Sequence record: OQ938541.1
Length of the DNA stretch: 64,000 nucleotides
Direction: 5' to 3' (one strand)
Source: Escherichia phage vB_EcoP_PE006
This document shows positions 39,231-63,878 of this stretch, piece after piece. A model generated the notes under the pieces. The model worked only from the letters and a program-made list of their open reading frames with translations. It did not search any database and had not been told where the DNA came from. A program made the position numbers and the translations under genes. How positions within the stretch are numbered: position 1 is the first letter of the stretch; the number at the start of each line of letters is the position of its first letter.

Positions 39231-40514
<1,284 letters not shown>

Positions 40515-40806
40515 AATGCATCTCTTTATAAATGGTTTCCGTGTTCTTCTTCCAGCTAGATAAACCGGTAAGAACTCTCTGGGCAACTTCATCAGCTGCC
40601 TTGCTTCTTTCAATCTCTAATTCTTGCTGGTGCTTCTCTTTGTCCAGATTACTACTGTCTGTTTGATATTCGTTAAACTTCATACCACCAAAGAATACAA
40701 GAGCTGAGAAAACGATAAACCCTAAGTTATCACTTAACGTGTTTTGCATGTTGTCTCCAACGAAAAAAGCCACCCGAAGGTGGCTAAGCTATAACAAGGA
40801 GAGTTA

Positions 40807-48136: not shown

Positions 48137-48254
48137 TCATGCAGGTGTCTTCATTTAACTCTTCACACTCAAAACATGCTCGTTCGATATTTTTGTAGAA
48201 GTCGATGGTTGCTGAACCATCACCACAATCTCGGATAACTAGAGCTACTTTCAC
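48069..48254 (-). CDS. hypothetical acidic protein (61 aa)
   Basis: ORF only; overlaps the previous ORF in another frame. Confidence 0.3.
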   Translation of the reverse strand: MKVALVIRDCGDGSATIDFYKNIERACFECEELNEDTCMNDGEPTIIDVPDDFVPPGGWSE

Positions 48255-48994
48255 TTCTCTTGTCCTTTTTCCATTGCTTTAACAATAGCTTTACAGAAAC
48301 CAGAACGAACAATGTCATCTGATTCGCCGTCTACAATCTCAGCGAACTCATACAGATCATGTTCATCAATAAAGTTAGTAGCCCAAGTAAGACCACTCTC
48401 ACGACCACGCATATCATGCTGGTTAGTATCACCCATGCAGAACAGCTGAGAGGTTTCTCCCAATCGAGTCATGATTGAGAAGGCTTCATCTTTAGTTGTG
48501 TTCTGGAACTCATCAACGATAACGATAGCATCATTGAAAGAACGACCACGGAGATATTCCAGAGGTACGAACTCAATGTTACTGTTACCGAGCTGGCATT
48601 CATAGAACCCTTTACCATATCGCTGAGTAATAACATCAATGATAGGCATCAAATATGGTTCAAACTTCTCACGCATCCCTCCCGGAAGCAACCCAAGAGA
48701 ATTACCCATGCCGACCGAAGGGCGACTCAGGATAATCTTCTGAATCTTACCACTCTTCAGTGCATCGATAACCGTGGAAGTGATTACAAAGGTCTTACCA
48801 CAGCCCGCAGGAGCGTCTGTGAACACAACTTGTTTAGTCTTGATAGCATTGAGCAGTTCAGACTGGAACTGGTTCTGAGGGACTACAGGCTTTGCTAAAA
48901 CCACCTCTTCAAACTCGCGCTTACCCTTACGAGTGACAAGTGCTTCCCGACGAAGGTCTTTCCGTGATTCTTTCCGTGATTGACGACGACTCAT
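48251..48994 (-). CDS. phoH: PhoH-like ATPase
   Basis: Walker A DAPAGCGKT and Walker B VIVDEFQN in the spacing typical of PhoH-family proteins. Confidence 0.75.
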   Translation of the reverse strand: MSRRQSRKESRKDLRREALVTRKGKREFEEVVLAKPVVPQNQFQSELLNAIKTKQVVFTDAPAGCGKTFVITSTVIDALKSGKIQKIILSRPSVGMGNSLGLLPGGMREKFEPYLMPIIDVITQRYGKGFYECQLGNSNIEFVPLEYLRGRSFNDAIVIVDEFQNTTKDEAFSIMTRLGETSQLFCMGDTNQHDMRGRESGLTWATNFIDEHDLYEFAEIVDGESDDIVRSGFCKAIVKAMEKGQEK

Positions 48995-49203
48995 TTACGC
49001 TCTCCAATTTCTTCGTAATGACATTCAGTAGTTAAACAATCTTTACAGATTGCTGTATAAACCCTGACGTTAGTAAATCGTTTGTTCTTCCCTTTGGTTG
49101 GAGAGCCTTTAGCAAGCTCTCTGATAACCTTGTTACTTAAGTGAAGGTTTGTCCCTTCACACCTAGAGCACTTCACCACAATGTCCATTCGGTAAGAGAC
49201 CAC
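48991..49203 (-). CDS. small zinc-ribbon protein
   Basis: CSRCEG...CKDCLTTECH Cys pairs; 4-nt overlap with phoH. Confidence 0.4.
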   Translation of the reverse strand: MVSYRMDIVVKCSRCEGTNLHLSNKVIRELAKGSPTKGKNKRFTNVRVYTAICKDCLTTECHYEEIGERK

Positions 49204-49373
49204 AGAGAGTCGCCTATGTGGGCATTGTCATTCCTGATGAGGTCTTTGATTTTATCAACATTAGTTAAGTGAGTCACATTCAAAATATCCTCAACATCTG
49301 GGGCATATTTAAATATGGCAACAATACTGTTGTGATCTTCAGCATATCTTTCTAGAACATAAACTACGCTCAT
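49173..49373 (-). CDS. hypothetical protein (66 aa)
   Basis: ORF only. Confidence 0.35.
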   Translation of the reverse strand: MSVVYVLERYAEDHNSIVAIFKYAPDVEDILNVTHLTNVDKIKDLIRNDNAHIGDSLWSLTEWTLW

Positions 49374-49693
49374 GCGAAGTTAACCTCTTTATGAAGTCTG
49401 TAAACAGCTGTCGCCATACAAGCAACAGCTTCGTTATGTGGGAGATGCATCCCTGTAGAACCATCCCAATCTTTGAACTCATTGTCAAAGACTCCGGTAG
49501 GCTCTGGATACAAGGCTTGCAACTCAACCAAATCATTAGCAACTTGTTGCCATTTATCATCAGACCAGATAGGGTCATCCAACCAGTAATACAAATAGGA
49601 ATGGATGATCAATTGCCTTCTATGCCGATTAATCACTTCAGCGGGACTTATCTCACTTCCATTTGAAGTCCTAAATGTATTACTGTTAATCAT
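49370..49693 (-). CDS. stand-alone protein resembling NAD-dependent DNA ligase domain Ia
   Basis: RHRRQLIIHSYLYYWLDDPIWSDDKWQQVANDLVELQALYPEP follows the LigA N-terminal pattern (H..YLYY..D.P.ISD..YD.L...L..LE..YPE). Confidence 0.45.
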   Translation of the reverse strand: MINSNTFRTSNGSEISPAEVINRHRRQLIIHSYLYYWLDDPIWSDDKWQQVANDLVELQALYPEPTGVFDNEFKDWDGSTGMHLPHNEAVACMATAVYRLHKEVNFA

Positions 49694-49896
49694 TATGAAA
49701 ATTTCCGTTCTGTTAAAAAATACTGAACTTCTTTATCTGGAGACCAAACCTTTTCTCCATTTACCAACTTCTTAGCATCTTCATACGAAGCACAATCCAA
49801 AGCAGGGCTATCAGGTGTCGGTTTCCCTAGGAAATATTTCCAAGTCCAACGCTCTCCGTCATCATCTTGACAGTCAAGAGTCCATAATGTTTTCAT
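49693..49896 (-). CDS. hypothetical protein (67 aa)
   Basis: ORF only. Confidence 0.35.
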   Translation of the reverse strand: MKTLWTLDCQDDDGERWTWKYFLGKPTPDSPALDCASYEDAKKLVNGEKVWSPDKEVQYFLTERKFS

Positions 49897-50117
49897 TTAA
49901 CAACCTTAAATTTGAATGTTGTTGGGTGATAATAATGCAATCTGTTAATGGTGTGCTTTGTTTCAAGATATATCCTACAAGAGTGACACATGACATGAGA
50001 CAGACCAGTCACAGGGTTGGGTTTGAAGTTGGCGATAGGCTTCTCTTTCTTACAGAAGCTACACATTTTCTTATCCATCTTTTCTCCTGCTAATCCTCTG
50101 AGTTGTGGGGACAGCAA
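49893..50117 (-). CDS. small Cys/His-rich (zinc-finger-like) protein
   Basis: CSFCKK...CHSCR pattern; true start may be the internal Met. Confidence 0.35.
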   Translation of the reverse strand: MLSPQLRGLAGEKMDKKMCSFCKKEKPIANFKPNPVTGLSHVMCHSCRIYLETKHTINRLHYYHPTTFKFKVVK

Positions 50118-50223: not shown

Positions 50224-50880
50224 TTAACTCTCCAAAGTTTTCTTCAGAGCTGCCCACGAGATTGGGTAGAGTTTAGCCATCTCTTCATCCAGAGATTGAG
50301 CAAACACTCGAACTTCATACTGAGCATGGGAGGATAGTCGCTGACGACACAACTCAAACCAACCATACAAAGAACCAGTCCACACCCACTCCGTGATCAT
50401 TCCCTGAGGAAGAACAAATCGGGCTTGCTCTGGTGCAACGAATTCAATCAACTTGTCATATGCTGCTAGAGAAGCTTCATATGCATCGTTAATCAACATT
50501 AATGCTTCAGCTCGTTCTCCATTGATGAGTTGAACCCCTGAACCTGCATGGAGGTCCGAAGGTCTCGCAAAAATCTCTTTAGGGATGAAGACTTCAACTG
50601 CTCCATCTTTATACCGCCGGGACATTTCGTTCCACGAGAATCCAACCTGATGCTTGCCCAACTGTCTCGCAATTGCGATAGGTGCTTTGCATCGGAAACT
50701 GACTTGCGGGTGCCTGAAAGGCGTGACATGCTTCTCTCTCGCGAGGAAGTTGATGAGACGTTCATCACGTTCATTTAAATCACCTTCACGGGTTACGCCA
50801 AAGGAAACTCGAGCTGCGTTTACTACGCTACGATCACTTCCCATAGCTTCGATTAATGTTGCTTGTAATTGTTCATTCAT
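50224..50880 (-). CDS. ThyX-like flavin-dependent thymidylate synthase homolog (divergent signature)
   Basis: IARQLGKHQVGFSWNEMSRRY aligns with the ThyX signature region (..RHR..S.NE.S.RY) but has KHQ in place of RHR. Confidence 0.55.
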   Translation of the reverse strand: MNEQLQATLIEAMGSDRSVVNAARVSFGVTREGDLNERDERLINFLAREKHVTPFRHPQVSFRCKAPIAIARQLGKHQVGFSWNEMSRRYKDGAVEVFIPKEIFARPSDLHAGSGVQLINGERAEALMLINDAYEASLAAYDKLIEFVAPEQARFVLPQGMITEWVWTGSLYGWFELCRQRLSSHAQYEVRVFAQSLDEEMAKLYPISWAALKKTLES

Positions 50881-59153: not shown

Positions 59154-60350
59154 TTAGTAGTTTACAACAGTGCCATCATTCAGGGTAAGGCTATTAATCT
59201 GCAACACACGACCAAGCTGACGATCACTAATCGGTGCGTTCCAGCCAGAGCGGTAGAAGTTACGACCACAGAAGAACAAGATCACATTACTTGCTACAGT
59301 TGAACCGTTCTCAGGGTGCTTGATGTTAGCAATATAATAGCCACGACGTAAAGTACGACGGGTTACAGGGTTGATCTCTAACCCTTGTTCTTCAACTTGC
59401 ATTGTTTCAGGAACAGGTTCCGAAGACTCTTCAGCAACTGGTTCAGCTGTCAATGCAAAGTTCTCGTCATCTGCCGATTCAGCAAATTCTTCTTCCACTT
59501 CTTCAACAGGCAGTTCGTAAGCAACGCGGTAGTCAGGGTCAACACCAGAGAAGCTCTTAACAAACTCAACGATGTTGTGAGTATAAGTTTCCAGAGTTGT
59601 TCCAGTCAGGCCCGGAGCTGTATTAACTTCCAGAACCCATGCGTTAGTACCTTTGCTAATCAGGTCAACAGCACCGAAGTTCAAACCCAGAGCAGATACA
59701 GCTTTGTGAGCTTGAATCAGAACTTGATCAGGAGGGGCTTCAGTGAATGCGTTAGAATAAACCCAACCAGTGTGATGGTTACGAATATCTTCACGATAGC
59801 TTTCCAGTTCACGATAACCGTTACGACGAATCTTCTTCTGAACGTAAGTGATAACACCTTCGAACACATGAACACGCCATTCACGACGCGGGCCTTGAAT
59901 ACCACGGGTATAGAGAGGGGCGGGAGCTATACCTTCACCCGGAAGACGAACAGTGATGCCTTCTCCAGAATGGCCATTCAGAATAGCACGTTCATAAACA
60001 ACACTATCCAGATTCCATTCTGACGCCTGAGCAGCACGGATTGAGTACTCTACAGTGGATACCCCAGCAGCTTCCAAAGTTTGAAATGCTGTAACCTTAT
60101 TAGCTGCTCGGTTCAAGGCAACCACAGAGTTCAACACAGTTGCCCCACCAAAGAAAGAATCGTTGTATCGACGGTTTCCGTAGTTGACAACAATATCACC
60201 AACCCGAGAACGATAACGAGAACCCTCTGATACCAGAGACATTACGTTAGCATTTAAGCGGAGTTCCTGAATCTTAGTATTGATTGCAGAAGTAAGTTCA
60301 CGAACTGAATCAGAAGGGCCATAAGGAAGAACACGGATACGAGTAGTCAT
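59154..60350 (-). CDS. ATP-grasp family ligase
   Basis: GAVDLISKGTNAWVLEVNTAPGLTG resembles the ATP-grasp C-terminal nucleotide-binding block; acidic linker and extra C-terminal domain. Confidence 0.6.
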   Translation of the reverse strand: MTTRIRVLPYGPSDSVRELTSAINTKIQELRLNANVMSLVSEGSRYRSRVGDIVVNYGNRRYNDSFFGGATVLNSVVALNRAANKVTAFQTLEAAGVSTVEYSIRAAQASEWNLDSVVYERAILNGHSGEGITVRLPGEGIAPAPLYTRGIQGPRREWRVHVFEGVITYVQKKIRRNGYRELESYREDIRNHHTGWVYSNAFTEAPPDQVLIQAHKAVSALGLNFGAVDLISKGTNAWVLEVNTAPGLTGTTLETYTHNIVEFVKSFSGVDPDYRVAYELPVEEVEEEFAESADDENFALTAEPVAEESSEPVPETMQVEEQGLEINPVTRRTLRRGYYIANIKHPENGSTVASNVILFFCGRNFYRSGWNAPISDRQLGRVLQINSLTLNDGTVVNY

Positions 60351-60352
60351 TG

Positions 60353-60577
60353 TTAGATACCTTTAAGTTTAAGAATTTCGTTACGAGTTTTTTGAATCTG
60401 AGCTTCAATTTCGAAGTAGTCGTTGAACGCATCGTTCTCTACTTCATCGGATGGTGCATCAATCAGACCGAAAGCGAACGGATACAGCTTTCGCTGCTCC
60501 GTTACTAATTCGATATGAACTCCTATGTAGTACTGTAGGAGAGTGATCTTTGGTTTCTTAGGAACCAGATTTGACAT
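60353..60577 (-). CDS. hypothetical protein (74 aa)
   Basis: Small ORF inside the ligase cluster. Confidence 0.35.
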   Translation of the reverse strand: MSNLVPKKPKITLLQYYIGVHIELVTEQRKLYPFAFGLIDAPSDEVENDAFNDYFEIEAQIQKTRNEILKLKGI

Positions 60578-60791
60578 GAGGTTCTACCTTAATGCCTTTG
60601 ATTTTTACATAATCAGCAAGTACATTATTGATCACAGTTGGGAATGGAACCTCAACCTGTGTCTCAAGTACTTGACCAATACCAGCTTGCATCCACTTCT
60701 GGATTGCACGAAGGTTATCACATCCTGTGCTCGTCATCGGGATACGTCGAGTAGTTACAACGTTATCCAGCATCATCTTACGAATTTCCAT
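60558..60791 (-). CDS. hypothetical protein (77 aa)
   Basis: Small ORF inside the ligase cluster. Confidence 0.35.
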   Translation of the reverse strand: MEIRKMMLDNVVTTRRIPMTSTGCDNLRAIQKWMQAGIGQVLETQVEVPFPTVINNVLADYVKIKGIKVEPHVKSGS

Positions 60792-60793
60792 AC

Positions 60794-62824
60794 TTAACCT
60801 CTATTCAATGAACATTTAGGAGAATTACAATAAACTTGATTCATAGAACCAAGCGTACAACTTTCAGCATCGCGCCACGGAATCTGCTTAAAACACTCTG
60901 AGCAGTAGCCGAGGGTTGACCACATGGCTTTGGTGAAGTCAGTGCTTCGGTTTCCGTCGAAGCTGACAACAGTTTTGCGGAGAGCTGTTCGTGATTCAGG
61001 AAACACACCTGCTTTCTCAGCAGGTTCCTCCTTTTTTGGCTTAGTTGAGATTGCAAAAACACTGTTGCTACGTTTCTCAACATAAGCATCAACAACATCC
61101 TCCAGAGTGATGCCTGTCTGTTTCGCTGAGGAAGGTAATACAGTCATACGACCAATCATATCTTCAGTTACACGTAAAGCAAATTCAGGACGACGGGCGT
61201 TTGTTGTATCTGTTGCTTTAATCCAGATATAACCATCTTTGATCGTAGCATTAGACACTTTCTTCTTTACATCTACAGCGCAGACTTTACAGATATCTTC
61301 ACCACGAAGACGGCTGAGTTCTTCATCAAACTCGTTTTCTGTTTTAACTTCACCACAGATTTCACAAACACCGATAGGAGTTTCCTCCTCTTCTTCATCC
61401 TTTGGTTTAGTCAAACCTTCCAGACATTCAGGGTGCCAGTAGCATTGATATGCGAAGACTGCTTTAGGTGCATCCTTCCAATCAATGTGTTTGTCACAAC
61501 CACCACAATCACCATGAGAGTGCGCTTCCCAGAATTTACGAGTGATAGTAACGCCATTCTTGTTGACGAAACTATCATTCATATCAAAAGGGATATCATC
61601 ATCAAAGTCAGCAGTAGTAGACTCAGGCTCCTTTTTCTCCAGAGATGGGTCAACAAAACGACCTGCTGTGATTACTAAACGAACCATAGCATTAACTTCG
61701 GAGATGCAGGATACTGTCCCACGGTAAACAATTTTAGGGTCTTTCAGGGCATCCTGATAAGCCTTAATGTCTACGTTATGAACATCACCCTCGATATACT
61801 CTTGAGACTTCTCATCGTAGATATAACCGATCATCTTACCACGAGAAGGAACAGCACCAGCTGTTGCATAAGGAACAAACTCATGTGGTGTGATTTCTAC
61901 AGTCATGTCGCGGCGAATGTCAATGTTTCGATCGCTTGCGATTTTGTTTTGACTTACCACTGCGTTTCTTCGACGAACGTCTGCCGCTGTCACTCCCGGC
62001 TTCGTGTCGTAAGGATTGCTTGTACTGCTTTTTGAGGAACTTTGATAGTTGCTTTGGCTGTAGTTGTTCGAGTAGTAATTGCCCCAACGATTGATTACCG
62101 TAAAAACCGGAAGCTCGTGGGCGACCTCTTCAACCAGAGTCATGCTGTTGTTTGACATATCAAAGATATACTCTGTACCAACTTTACATTCAAAGTGCTC
62201 ATCAATTCGGTTCTTGTGAGACTTAGAACGCTTCAGAATCCACATCAACATATCTTCTTCAGAAGCACCAAACCAATCTCTGTTACAACGTGCGAGATGG
62301 AAAGGACGCTCTTCGTTACGGATGATATGAAGGCGGTTATCAGAAGCATCATGCCAGATTAAGGTGAAAGCACCATCCAGCTTTTGAATAGTCTCTGCTG
62401 CACCAATAGTATTAATAGAGTGGCAGATGTTCTCACTATCTACCTCGAAGTTTTTACTGTCAGGTAACAGATCTTGGTCCATCAAGGTTCCGTTATGAAC
62501 CAGAGTGATGTTACCATGTTGGAAAGGATGGGCGTTCTTGGCGTTAACTGCACCTTTCGTTGCATGACGGCTGTGACCAACAATCCATGAAGGTGCTACA
62601 GTGTAAGCTGTTTCACCAGTGGTGTGCTTCTTGTACTCATCTTGAAGGATGAATGCGAAAGAAGGAAGTGCCTCTTTATAAGTGAAGACTTCCTTAGTGC
62701 TCTTACGCTGACCAAAGATACCAGAGGAATGTTGCCCTCGGAATACCCCAGCATAAAAGAGTTGGTTAAATACGTCTAAATCGGTGCTTGACAGATTACC
62801 GCCAGCTAATACGATGCCACAAAT
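60794..62824 (-). CDS. class-II glutamine amidotransferase (Ntn-hydrolase) domain protein with Cys-rich C-terminal zinc-ribbon-like segments; proposed non-canonical ATT start
   Basis: The frame is open 113 codons upstream of the track's TTG start and encodes (I)CGIVLAGG...GHSRHATKG...NAHPF...LVHNGTL, a GAT-II signature with N-terminal Cys. An in-frame TAG lies two codons before the Cys; the only codon before Cys is ATT, with AGGTGG 8 nt upstream. Confidence 0.55.
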   Translation of the reverse strand: MCGIVLAGGNLSSTDLDVFNQLFYAGVFRGQHSSGIFGQRKSTKEVFTYKEALPSFAFILQDEYKKHTTGETAYTVAPSWIVGHSRHATKGAVNAKNAHPFQHGNITLVHNGTLMDQDLLPDSKNFEVDSENICHSINTIGAAETIQKLDGAFTLIWHDASDNRLHIIRNEERPFHLARCNRDWFGASEEDMLMWILKRSKSHKNRIDEHFECKVGTEYIFDMSNNSMTLVEEVAHELPVFTVINRWGNYYSNNYSQSNYQSSSKSSTSNPYDTKPGVTAADVRRRNAVVSQNKIASDRNIDIRRDMTVEITPHEFVPYATAGAVPSRGKMIGYIYDEKSQEYIEGDVHNVDIKAYQDALKDPKIVYRGTVSCISEVNAMVRLVITAGRFVDPSLEKKEPESTTADFDDDIPFDMNDSFVNKNGVTITRKFWEAHSHGDCGGCDKHIDWKDAPKAVFAYQCYWHPECLEGLTKPKDEEEEETPIGVCEICGEVKTENEFDEELSRLRGEDICKVCAVDVKKKVSNATIKDGYIWIKATDTTNARRPEFALRVTEDMIGRMTVLPSSAKQTGITLEDVVDAYVEKRSNSVFAISTKPKKEEPAEKAGVFPESRTALRKTVVSFDGNRSTDFTKAMWSTLGYCSECFKQIPWRDAESCTLGSMNQVYCNSPKCSLNRG

Positions 62825-62903
62825 TTTCTAATCCACCTGAAGGGTAAACCCTTTCATCTAATTAACCTTTAAATTGTGCCCCTTTATCAGAGGCACCCAT
62901 TGA

Positions 62904-63878
62904 TTACAGCGCTTGCTCTAACTGATTTTCCAGATGATCTGGAATGTACCCTGTGATATTGCTATCGCTGTGACCTGACTCACGCAGTAAGTCAAAGATA
63001 GCACGGATACGTTGTTCTGGAGCGTGTCTTACTTGAGACAGGTCAGTTGTACGAAGCATAACCAGAATCTCTTGGTATAAGTTGTTAGCGTTCCCTCGGA
63101 TATACCCAAGGAATCCGTAGAAGTCTGACATATAACGTAAGTCAACAAGAACATCTCCGTTGGAGTTGGTTCGACGTAAACGAATACGACCAGACTGCTC
63201 TACTCCATGAGAACGACAATACAAAACATCACGGGCCATACAATACCCTGAATGCAAATCCGATTCGTCCAGATTGTAATCCAGAGGAAGGTAAGTAAGC
63301 ATTGGGGCAAATCGTACAGTATTTAAATGCTCAATAAACTGATCATTGCTCATCTCTGCGTTATCTAATGCAAGCTTCTTCAACATCAAGAAGCGGTTAA
63401 CCAGATTGAGAAGTTGACCACGTTTCCACTTAGGCTCACTGATACGGAACTCAATCGAACCATATTGGGCAAGTGGCAGAAGGTTCAGAGATGTATACTT
63501 ATCCCATGAACGAACCAGACGGTTGAAGAACTCTTCATCGTCGTAGTTAAATGCGTCAGAGGCATTCATTACCTGTGCTTGTACCACTGCGAAAGCAGGG
63601 CAGAAGTTGCTACGGTAACGATGGTAGCCTGAACACTTGAACAACATCTTTTCATAGAAGGTCCAAGCGAGAATGGTTTTCTTGAGGATATTACTATCAG
63701 CATCCCTCATATCCATATGAACGTGAGTAGAGCAACGCCAAGTCCCCTCGGCGTGCGATTCAGCTACTGCTTCACTCAGGTTGTTGATAGCGTCTAACAA
63801 CTCCTGTCCGTTGTAAGGTCGTGAACATACCATTTCACAACCATTACGCAGGGAACCATCCTCTGTACAATCCCACAT
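62904..63878 (-). CDS. hypothetical protein (324 aa), part of the ATP-grasp/amidotransferase cluster; possible amide ligase by context only
   Basis: Conserved-looking ORF (EGTWRCSTHVHMD...); family not identified from sequence. Confidence 0.4.
   Translation of the reverse strand: MWDCTEDGSLRNGCEMVCSRPYNGQELLDAINNLSEAVAESHAEGTWRCSTHVHMDMRDADSNILKKTILAWTFYEKMLFKCSGYHRYRSNFCPAFAVVQAQVMNASDAFNYDDEEFFNRLVRSWDKYTSLNLLPLAQYGSIEFRISEPKWKRGQLLNLVNRFLMLKKLALDNAEMSNDQFIEHLNTVRFAPMLTYLPLDYNLDESDLHSGYCMARDVLYCRSHGVEQSGRIRLRRTNSNGDVLVDLRYMSDFYGFLGYIRGNANNLYQEILVMLRTTDLSQVRHAPEQRIRAIFDLLRESGHSDSNITGYIPDHLENQLEQAL

Follow-up and report, generated by a model that had tools for sequence, protein, structure and literature searches.

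A free-standing homolog of DNA ligase domain Ia in an Escherichia coli podophage: a candidate NAD+-binding accessory protein of phage DNA replication

Iyer, Burroughs, Anantharaman and Aravind (Viruses 14:1977, 2022; PMC9503650, section 3.5.1) named the Nlig-Ia domain and described proteins composed of it alone in 81 phages, 80 of which lack a ligase gene. These solo proteins, with ECBP2_0056 as exemplar, were predicted to be sensors or shields of nicotinamide adenine dinucleotide (NAD+), directed against host NADase effectors. The subject here is the solo Nlig-Ia protein of Escherichia phage vB_EcoP_PE006 (sequence record OQ938541.1), a phiEco32-like podophage of E. coli (Gordonclarkvirinae, Kuravirus). 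An original prediction, made from the letters of a 64,000-nucleotide stretch of this phage (the window), placed a free-standing homolog of domain Ia of the NAD+-dependent DNA ligase LigA at positions 49370–49693. These coordinates are exact: an ATG-to-TGA open reading frame (ORF) of 107 codons occupies 49370..49693, stop codon included, on the minus strand. The protein is 78% identical to ECBP2_0056 over 103 residues (E = 4e-66), and the two genes are syntenic, each lying between PhoH and ThyX. What was predicted is right, both as seen and as read, yet already known: the family is curated in Pfam, and the window protein is orthologous to its exemplar. Family, solo architecture, gene position and the lack of any visible ligase gene are all shared with the published proteins, and nothing material differs.

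The Nlig-Ia section of that paper does not mention the C-terminal sequence motif, the two substitutions in the presumed ligand site, the clamp-like tails, the helicase fusion or the replication-gene neighbourhoods considered below, and the word "clamp" appears nowhere in the article. Literature searches found no experimental work on the family. A functional comparison can be made with phage counter-defences centred on NAD+, namely the NARP1, NARP2 and NARP3 reconstitution pathways and the sponges for signals derived from ADP-ribose. Those systems are likewise phage-encoded, but they are enzymes or signal binders in accessory loci, whereas Nlig-Ia is non-catalytic, a core gene, and located inside replication modules. 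The NARP3 and Klebsiella papers leave the ligase domain unmentioned. We tentatively favour, at slightly short of an even chance, a role for the window protein as a non-catalytic accessory protein of phage DNA replication that binds nicotinamide mononucleotide (NMN) or NAD+ and supports or monitors NAD+-dependent sealing by the host LigA.

The likeness to LigA domain Ia greatly exceeds anything expected by chance. Pfam profile PF22745 ("Nlig-Ia: DNA ligase-like, N-terminal NAD+-binding domain") matches residues 16–103 over profile positions 1–91 of 92 (E = 2.7e-35; 121.3 bits against a cut-off of 27), and PHROG 6466 matches with E = 4.9e-42. In a phmmer search of PDB sequences the top matches are solely bacterial LigA N-termini; they are weak (E about 0.05–0.14), and the aligned stretch of the phage protein reads ...HSYLYYWLDDPIWSDDKWQQVANDLVELQALYPE. 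A template-free AlphaFold2 model, made from an alignment of 54 solo homologs only, is confident (predicted local distance difference test score, pLDDT, 90.8; predicted template-modelling score, pTM, 0.83), with helices at residues 17–38, 45–61 and 88–106 and an ordered loop, residues 62–87, in between. When this model was compared with the PDB by Foldseek, the best 26 matches were all NAD+-dependent DNA ligases (probability 0.99–1.0), and the helical hairpin superposed on LigA domain Ia at 0.7–1.2 Å over 47 residues, with 23–34% identity. Since these top 26 matches are ligases, an unrelated fold did not materialise. The free-standing domain Ia homolog is thus borne out at the levels of sequence, profile and predicted structure, both by the near full-length profile match and by the superposed LigA-like hairpin, two of the checks that the original prediction had suggested. 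Its further claim, that the protein reproduces the N-terminal pattern of domain Ia, holds for residues ~17–61; residues 62–107 form a loop and a helix without counterpart in LigA.

Like the LigA structures (PDB 5tt5, 1dgs, 1ta8 and 7k72), the phage protein contains a two-helix hairpin with the pattern H-x-Y-x-Y-[YH] ... D-x-x-[YW]. This hairpin, equivalent to domain Ia by model and superposition, spans residues 17–61 (49511..49645, minus strand, as for all elements of the gene). It is preceded by an N-terminal extension, residues 1–16 (MINSNTFRTSNGSEIS; 49646..49693), which in the alignment is found only in the kuravirus-like clade; the model renders it as a short turn bearing two beta-bridges of one residue each (pLDDT about 85). 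What sets the protein apart from LigA is the additional 45-residue loop and helix, with its invariant DWDGSTGMHLP motif. The loop (residues 62–87; 49433..49510) has no regular secondary structure in the model, yet its pLDDT is 85–93, and the alignment of 54 homologs places there the family motif F73-x-D75-W76-x-G78-S-T80-G81-M82-H83-L84-P85 (FxDWxGSTGMHLP), whose columns are invariant or nearly so and have no LigA counterpart in the alignment. The C-terminal helix (residues 88–106; 49376..49432) packs on the hairpin in the model, and the Pfam profile reaches into it as far as residue 103.

Five positions of E. coli LigA are of interest for ligand binding: Y22, H23, D32, Y35 and D36, which we take to be those needed for reaction with NAD+, and which reportedly were identified in domain Ia by Sriskanda and Shuman in 2002 (reference 119 of PMC9503650). 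Their equivalents in the phage protein are Y35 (49589-49591) and D45 (49559-49561), identical to Y22 and D32; Y36 (49586-49588), replacing H23 with the Tyr that also occurs in Thermus filiformis LigA of the same alignment; W48 (49550-49552), which retains the aromatic character of Y35; and Q49 (49547-49549), where the charge of D36 is lost. All five phage residues are invariant in the 54 diverse homologs, the last two substitutions therefore occurring in every aligned Nlig-Ia family member, and the window protein has all 18 of the columns invariant across that alignment (motifs HSYLYY, D..WQ and F.DW.GSTGMHLP). Because all five of these LigA NMN-site positions map to family-invariant positions, binding of NMN or NAD+ by the phage protein is plausible.

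The same residues can be read differently. Invariant substitutions at two of five NMN-site positions, together with the invariant GSTGxH loop, suggest a pocket unlike that of LigA, and the ligand might then be another NMN-bearing molecule at the replication fork: 5'-NAD-capped RNA, including primers initiated with NAD, or else NMN, nicotinamide riboside (NR) or nicotinic acid mononucleotide (NaMN) as a signal. In vitro, bacterial primase is able to start synthesis from NAD-type cofactors, and the gene lies ~50–170 bp from a putative primase in five viral loci and from a putative helicase in five (both assigned by sequence appearance). The argument is purely inferential, however, and we regard such a ligand as improbable.

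One further profile touches the hairpin. Imm41 (Pfam PF15592, polymorphic-toxin immunity protein 41) matches residues 32–67 (window 49493-49600) over profile positions 13–48 of 112, below threshold (E = 3e-4; 21.2 bits against a cut-off of 26.9). The homolog P0010 gives a sub-threshold match as well. Imm41 may share the Ia-like hairpin.

The protein is not a ligase. The original prediction held that adenylation, OB and BRCT domains are absent, and this proves correct: Pfam finds only Nlig-Ia above threshold in the 107 residues, a length that leaves no room for adenylation, OB, Zn-finger, HhH or BRCT domains, none of which is present. The KxDG motif with its catalytic lysine is missing also; the sequence K74-D-W-D-G is spaced differently, and K74 is not conserved. 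Lacking the domains just listed, which LigA possesses, the protein cannot be a ligase, and the labels "DNA ligase" and "NAD-dependent DNA ligase" found in databases are annotation errors. Hundreds of phage genomes carry the "DNA ligase" label on this gene, so its correction matters for annotation, and equally for deciding which phages rely on the ligase of their host. Nor was a ligase seen elsewhere: Pfam scans found no ligase domain in seven selected ORFs of the window or in three hypothetical proteins of phage Paul, a carefully annotated relative with a complete genome (79.4 kb) in which the 107-residue protein is the sole annotated "ligase". The ~13 kb of the phage genome beyond the window is covered only through Paul.

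The database labels, and the split NAD+ ligase of phage T5 as precedent, could instead point to a ligase fragment: what decay has left of a once full-length LigA of the phage, or a single subunit of a split enzyme with its catalytic part encoded elsewhere. The family argues otherwise. A profile search of 1.84 billion cluster representatives (clustered at 50% identity) returned 582 at E <= 1e-10 and 1080 at E <= 1e-3; this is a large family of solo proteins, with an invariant C-terminal motif of its own that LigA lacks. In the window gene, moreover, synonymous codon differences outnumber non-synonymous ones in comparisons with close relatives (14:6 and 12:7), a pattern suggesting that the gene, which appears to be under purifying selection, is no relic. 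No nucleotidyltransferase or OB module that might serve as partner was found in the selected ORFs of the window or of Paul. A split or decayed ligase is effectively excluded, and we attach almost no probability to it.

Nearly all of the 150 best matches listed are 75–190 residues long. Among cultured phages, 276 of 50,697 records encode a relative, and the carriers are diverse: E. coli kuraviruses; Enterococcus schiekviruses; jumbo phages of Erwinia and Salmonella; and siphophages of Arthrobacter, Rhodococcus, Clostridium, Carnobacterium and Streptococcus. The gene is present at >= 60% identity (at least that level) in ~92 records, against ~98 kuravirus-like records that match the surrounding region. 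By this count Nlig-Ia behaves, within the kuravirus group, like a core gene and not like an accessory one.

The phage encodes a DNA polymerase, a primase/helicase, and 5'-3' and 3'-5' exonucleases. Given primed lagging strands and no detected ligase, it must depend on the NAD+-dependent LigA of its host to seal Okazaki fragments. This dependence bears on one reading of the original prediction, which had suggested that a free domain Ia might modulate host LigA: that the protein is an inhibitor or decoy serving host shut-off, either docking on the LigA adenylation domain or competing for NAD+. In closed LigA, as seen in LigA–NAD+ structures, domain Ia packs against the nucleotidyltransferase domain, and two relevant structures, 5tt5 and 7k72, are among the structural matches of the model; clamp tethering in relatives (see below) would also place the protein where LigA acts. 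Yet 80 of the 81 published carriers, like this phage, show no ligase of their own while replicating lagging strands from primers. Because such phages need LigA, inhibition would harm the phage itself, and this reading is quite improbable.

Neighbouring genes in relatives, among them members of unrelated phage lineages, frequently have replication functions. The order in Arthrobacter phage Lizalica is primase/helicase, DNA Pol I, a small hypothetical ORF, Nlig-Ia; in Streptococcus phage Dp-1 it is DnaN, a Cas4-like exonuclease, RecU, dUTPase, UvsX, Nlig-Ia and three clamp-loader subunits. Nlig-Ia ORFs were called in 65 metagenomic viral loci, and in 41 of these a gene for replication or nucleotide metabolism lies on the same strand within ~6 kb. 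The neighbours confirmed by Pfam are the gp32 single-stranded DNA-binding protein, the gp59 helicase loader and the gp44 clamp loader; the others are PhoH, ThyX, ribonucleotide reductase beta, and putative clusters of primase and helicase genes that were recognised by eye.

A second line of evidence comes from the termini of relatives. The beta sliding clamp is bound through a consensus QLxLF, mostly C-terminal (PMC4549789), and comparable motifs are QAMSLF in the delta subunit and QLNLF in Pol V (PMC4549789, PMC4976356). LigA, too, is among the proteins that bind the beta clamp, in both E. coli and Helicobacter pylori (PMC4976356). Of 265 Nlig-Ia family members, 25 (~9%) carry a Pro/Ala-rich linker followed by a terminal Q-x-x-[LMIV]-F-COOH; QMSLF, QLSLF, QASLF and QMALF are examples. 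Among C-terminal extensions the motif occurs in 23 of 205, against 0.41 expected and a maximum of 2 in 500 shuffles. Most of its carriers belong to a single clade, and the rest are scattered over at least three or four lineages (proteins P0018, P0026, P0027, P0029, P0035, P0040, P0064, P0071, P0072, P0089, P0112, P0117, P0256 and others; loci L012, L021, L024, L025 and L076). Similar motifs stand near the N-terminus in two further relatives: Dp-1 Gp16 (L086:4845-5258) has MQKSLFG in frame upstream of the domain, and Dp-1 possesses a DnaN of its own, encoded five genes upstream of Gp16; P0241 starts MKQRSLF. These termini thus resemble sliding-clamp-binding motifs, with the same terminal arrangement as in the clamp clients Pol II, Pol IV, Pol V, the delta subunit and transposases; the window protein differs from those clients in lacking such a tail.

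Fusions form a third line. Rhodococcus phage ReqiPepy6 gp102 (L090:8168-9796; 542 residues), annotated "DNA ligase", joins Nlig-Ia (E = 1.6e-32) to a superfamily 2 (SF2) DNA helicase. More than 300 related actinophage records have the helicase part as a free-standing protein; the fusion is found in about 9, counted as the nine records that cover >= 80% (at least that share) of the fused gp102. Other architectures were seen as well: P0220 (321 residues) carries two to three tandem Nlig-Ia copies, and in P0181 (290 residues) and P0208 (315 residues) the domain is fused to a ~200-residue C-terminal domain. That C-terminal domain has no Pfam match; its sole match, a PHROG labelled "minor head protein", is uninformative.

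The neighbourhoods described for relatives, the clamp-like tails and the helicase fusion are all evidence on the family, not directly on the window gene; the tails and the fusion could shift the hypothesis from NAD+ sensor to replisome factor. The following model combines these features. The N-terminal helical hairpin, as a homolog of LigA domain Ia, would correspond to the module that grips the NMN half of NAD+. The FxDWxGSTGMHLP loop and third helix, packed on this hairpin, probably complete a putative ligand pocket, which in LigA would be completed by the nucleotidyltransferase domain. The protein would thereby bind NAD+ or NMN and, as an accessory factor of phage DNA replication, may help NAD+-dependent sealing to continue at the phage fork. 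It might capture NAD+ and present it, sequester the NMN that sealing releases, or signal NAD+ status to the replisome. Ligand binding is the better-founded inference; the link to LigA or the replisome is drawn more weakly, because the clamp motif and the helicase fusion are seen in relatives and not in the window protein.

Several observations weigh against this accessory role. The window protein ends ...LHKEVNFA, with no QxxLF-type motif, and has no fusion partner. The substitutions D36 to Gln and Y35 to Trp could alter ligand specificity. A stoichiometric binder cannot raise the concentration of free NAD+, so that presenting NAD+ to LigA would need a direct docking step. The neighbourhood evidence is weak, because many genes of early and middle function cluster with phage replication genes; and in the neighbourhoods of the clamp-motif clade, ten large ORFs gave no Pfam match except for one lambda-type integrase, which marks that carrier as temperate. 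Finally, in a host–phage yeast two-hybrid study of Dp-1, orf16 matched only RuvB, a prey that recurs with several unrelated baits, and so is uninformative.

The published view accounts for some of the same facts without any part for DNA ligase. As proposed by Iyer et al. (PMC9503650), the protein would sense or shield NAD+ in the face of NADase immunity (TIR, SIR2 and similar effectors), either reporting NAD+ depletion to the phage or protecting a pool of NAD+. Conservation of the NMN-site positions fits the predicted ligand; many bacterial defences against phages work by depleting NAD+, and phage countermeasures to this are known; and a helicase fused to Nlig-Ia could as readily be an NAD+-regulated output. 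Against it stand the location of a core gene in replication modules rather than in variable anti-defence islands, the solo domain without an evident sensing output, and the clamp-binding-like tails, which are unexpected for a cytosolic sponge. Cellular NAD+, moreover, is estimated as millimolar, an amount that a 12-kDa binder cannot plausibly shield. On balance a sensor or shield seems unlikely, though it is a serious contender.

The accessory role favoured here for the window protein can be extended to the family. Solo Nlig-Ia proteins might be replisome-associated NAD+/NMN-binding factors that couple phage lagging-strand maturation to host LigA, tethered to the clamp or fused to a helicase in many lineages. 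Coupling could take any of several forms: NAD+ handed to LigA in trans; NMN product trapped; the fork gated by NAD+; or NAD-initiated primers recognised. This broader proposal is doubtful, and is put forward as having perhaps one chance in several.

In the window, the Nlig-Ia gene is part of an extended leftward operon of closely packed genes, with ThyX (50224..50880) upstream of it and a PhoH-like ATPase (48251..48994) downstream. The packing is evident from the gene's overlaps with both neighbours on the minus strand: its start overlaps the stop of a 67-residue gene without PHROG match (49693..49896; TAATG), and its stop overlaps the start of a 66-residue gene (49173..49373; ATGA) assigned to phrog_30988, of unknown function. 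The region is 95–98% identical to phages NJ01, 172-1, VTCCBPA_211 and others. The NJ01 record leaves the Nlig-Ia gene itself without any annotation. Several labels in the same region of NJ01 look spurious: "isoleucyl-tRNA synthetase" on the homolog of the 66-residue downstream gene; "putative ABC transporter" on a 67-residue ORF; and "putative NAD+ diphosphatase" on a 43-residue ORF, called "membrane protein" in the RefSeq copy. The last was considered as a nearby NAD-related gene and set aside, as the label sits on so short an ORF and seems spurious.

Other genes of the window deserve brief mention. PHROG links a 74-residue Cys-rich protein (CxxC...CxxC; 49893-50117, minus strand) weakly to HNH/endonuclease VII and Lar-like restriction-alleviation families, and in relatives an overlapping coding sequence is annotated "anti-restriction nuclease". 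A 199-residue protein (52001-52600, minus strand), annotated as a DNA-binding protein in relatives, has a ferritin-like (Dps-type) domain (Pfam E = 2.7e-7), unusual for a podophage. At 59154-63878 (minus strand) lies a cluster of ATP-grasp, glutamine amidotransferase and amidoligase genes typical of phiEco32-like phages; its Pfam matches to ATP-grasp and Amidoligase_2 are weak, and it is neither a DNA ligase nor related to Nlig-Ia. Phage Paul has a Macro-domain gene ("Appr-1-p processing"; L002:35774-36214) between its sigma-factor and spanin genes, with an annotation that cites a phiEco32 homolog. By tblastn this gene was found neither at the corresponding window positions 40254-40773 nor elsewhere in the 64 kb; the ADP-ribose-related gene is therefore variable within the group, whereas Nlig-Ia is conserved.

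Many bacterial defences destroy NAD+, and LigA is the enzyme that offers the most direct route by which such loss would halt the replication of phage DNA. A conserved protein that consists of the NAD+-recognition module of ligase, is encoded in replication operons and in some relatives bears a clamp-like tail offers an experimental handle on nick sealing in NAD+-poor cells; the Nlig-Ia family is small, soluble-looking and amenable to testing. If solo Nlig-Ia proteins are indeed coupled to the replisome, they would form a class of accessory proteins in phage replication that had not been recognised before, and would directly link NAD+-depletion immunity with the sealing of Okazaki fragments.

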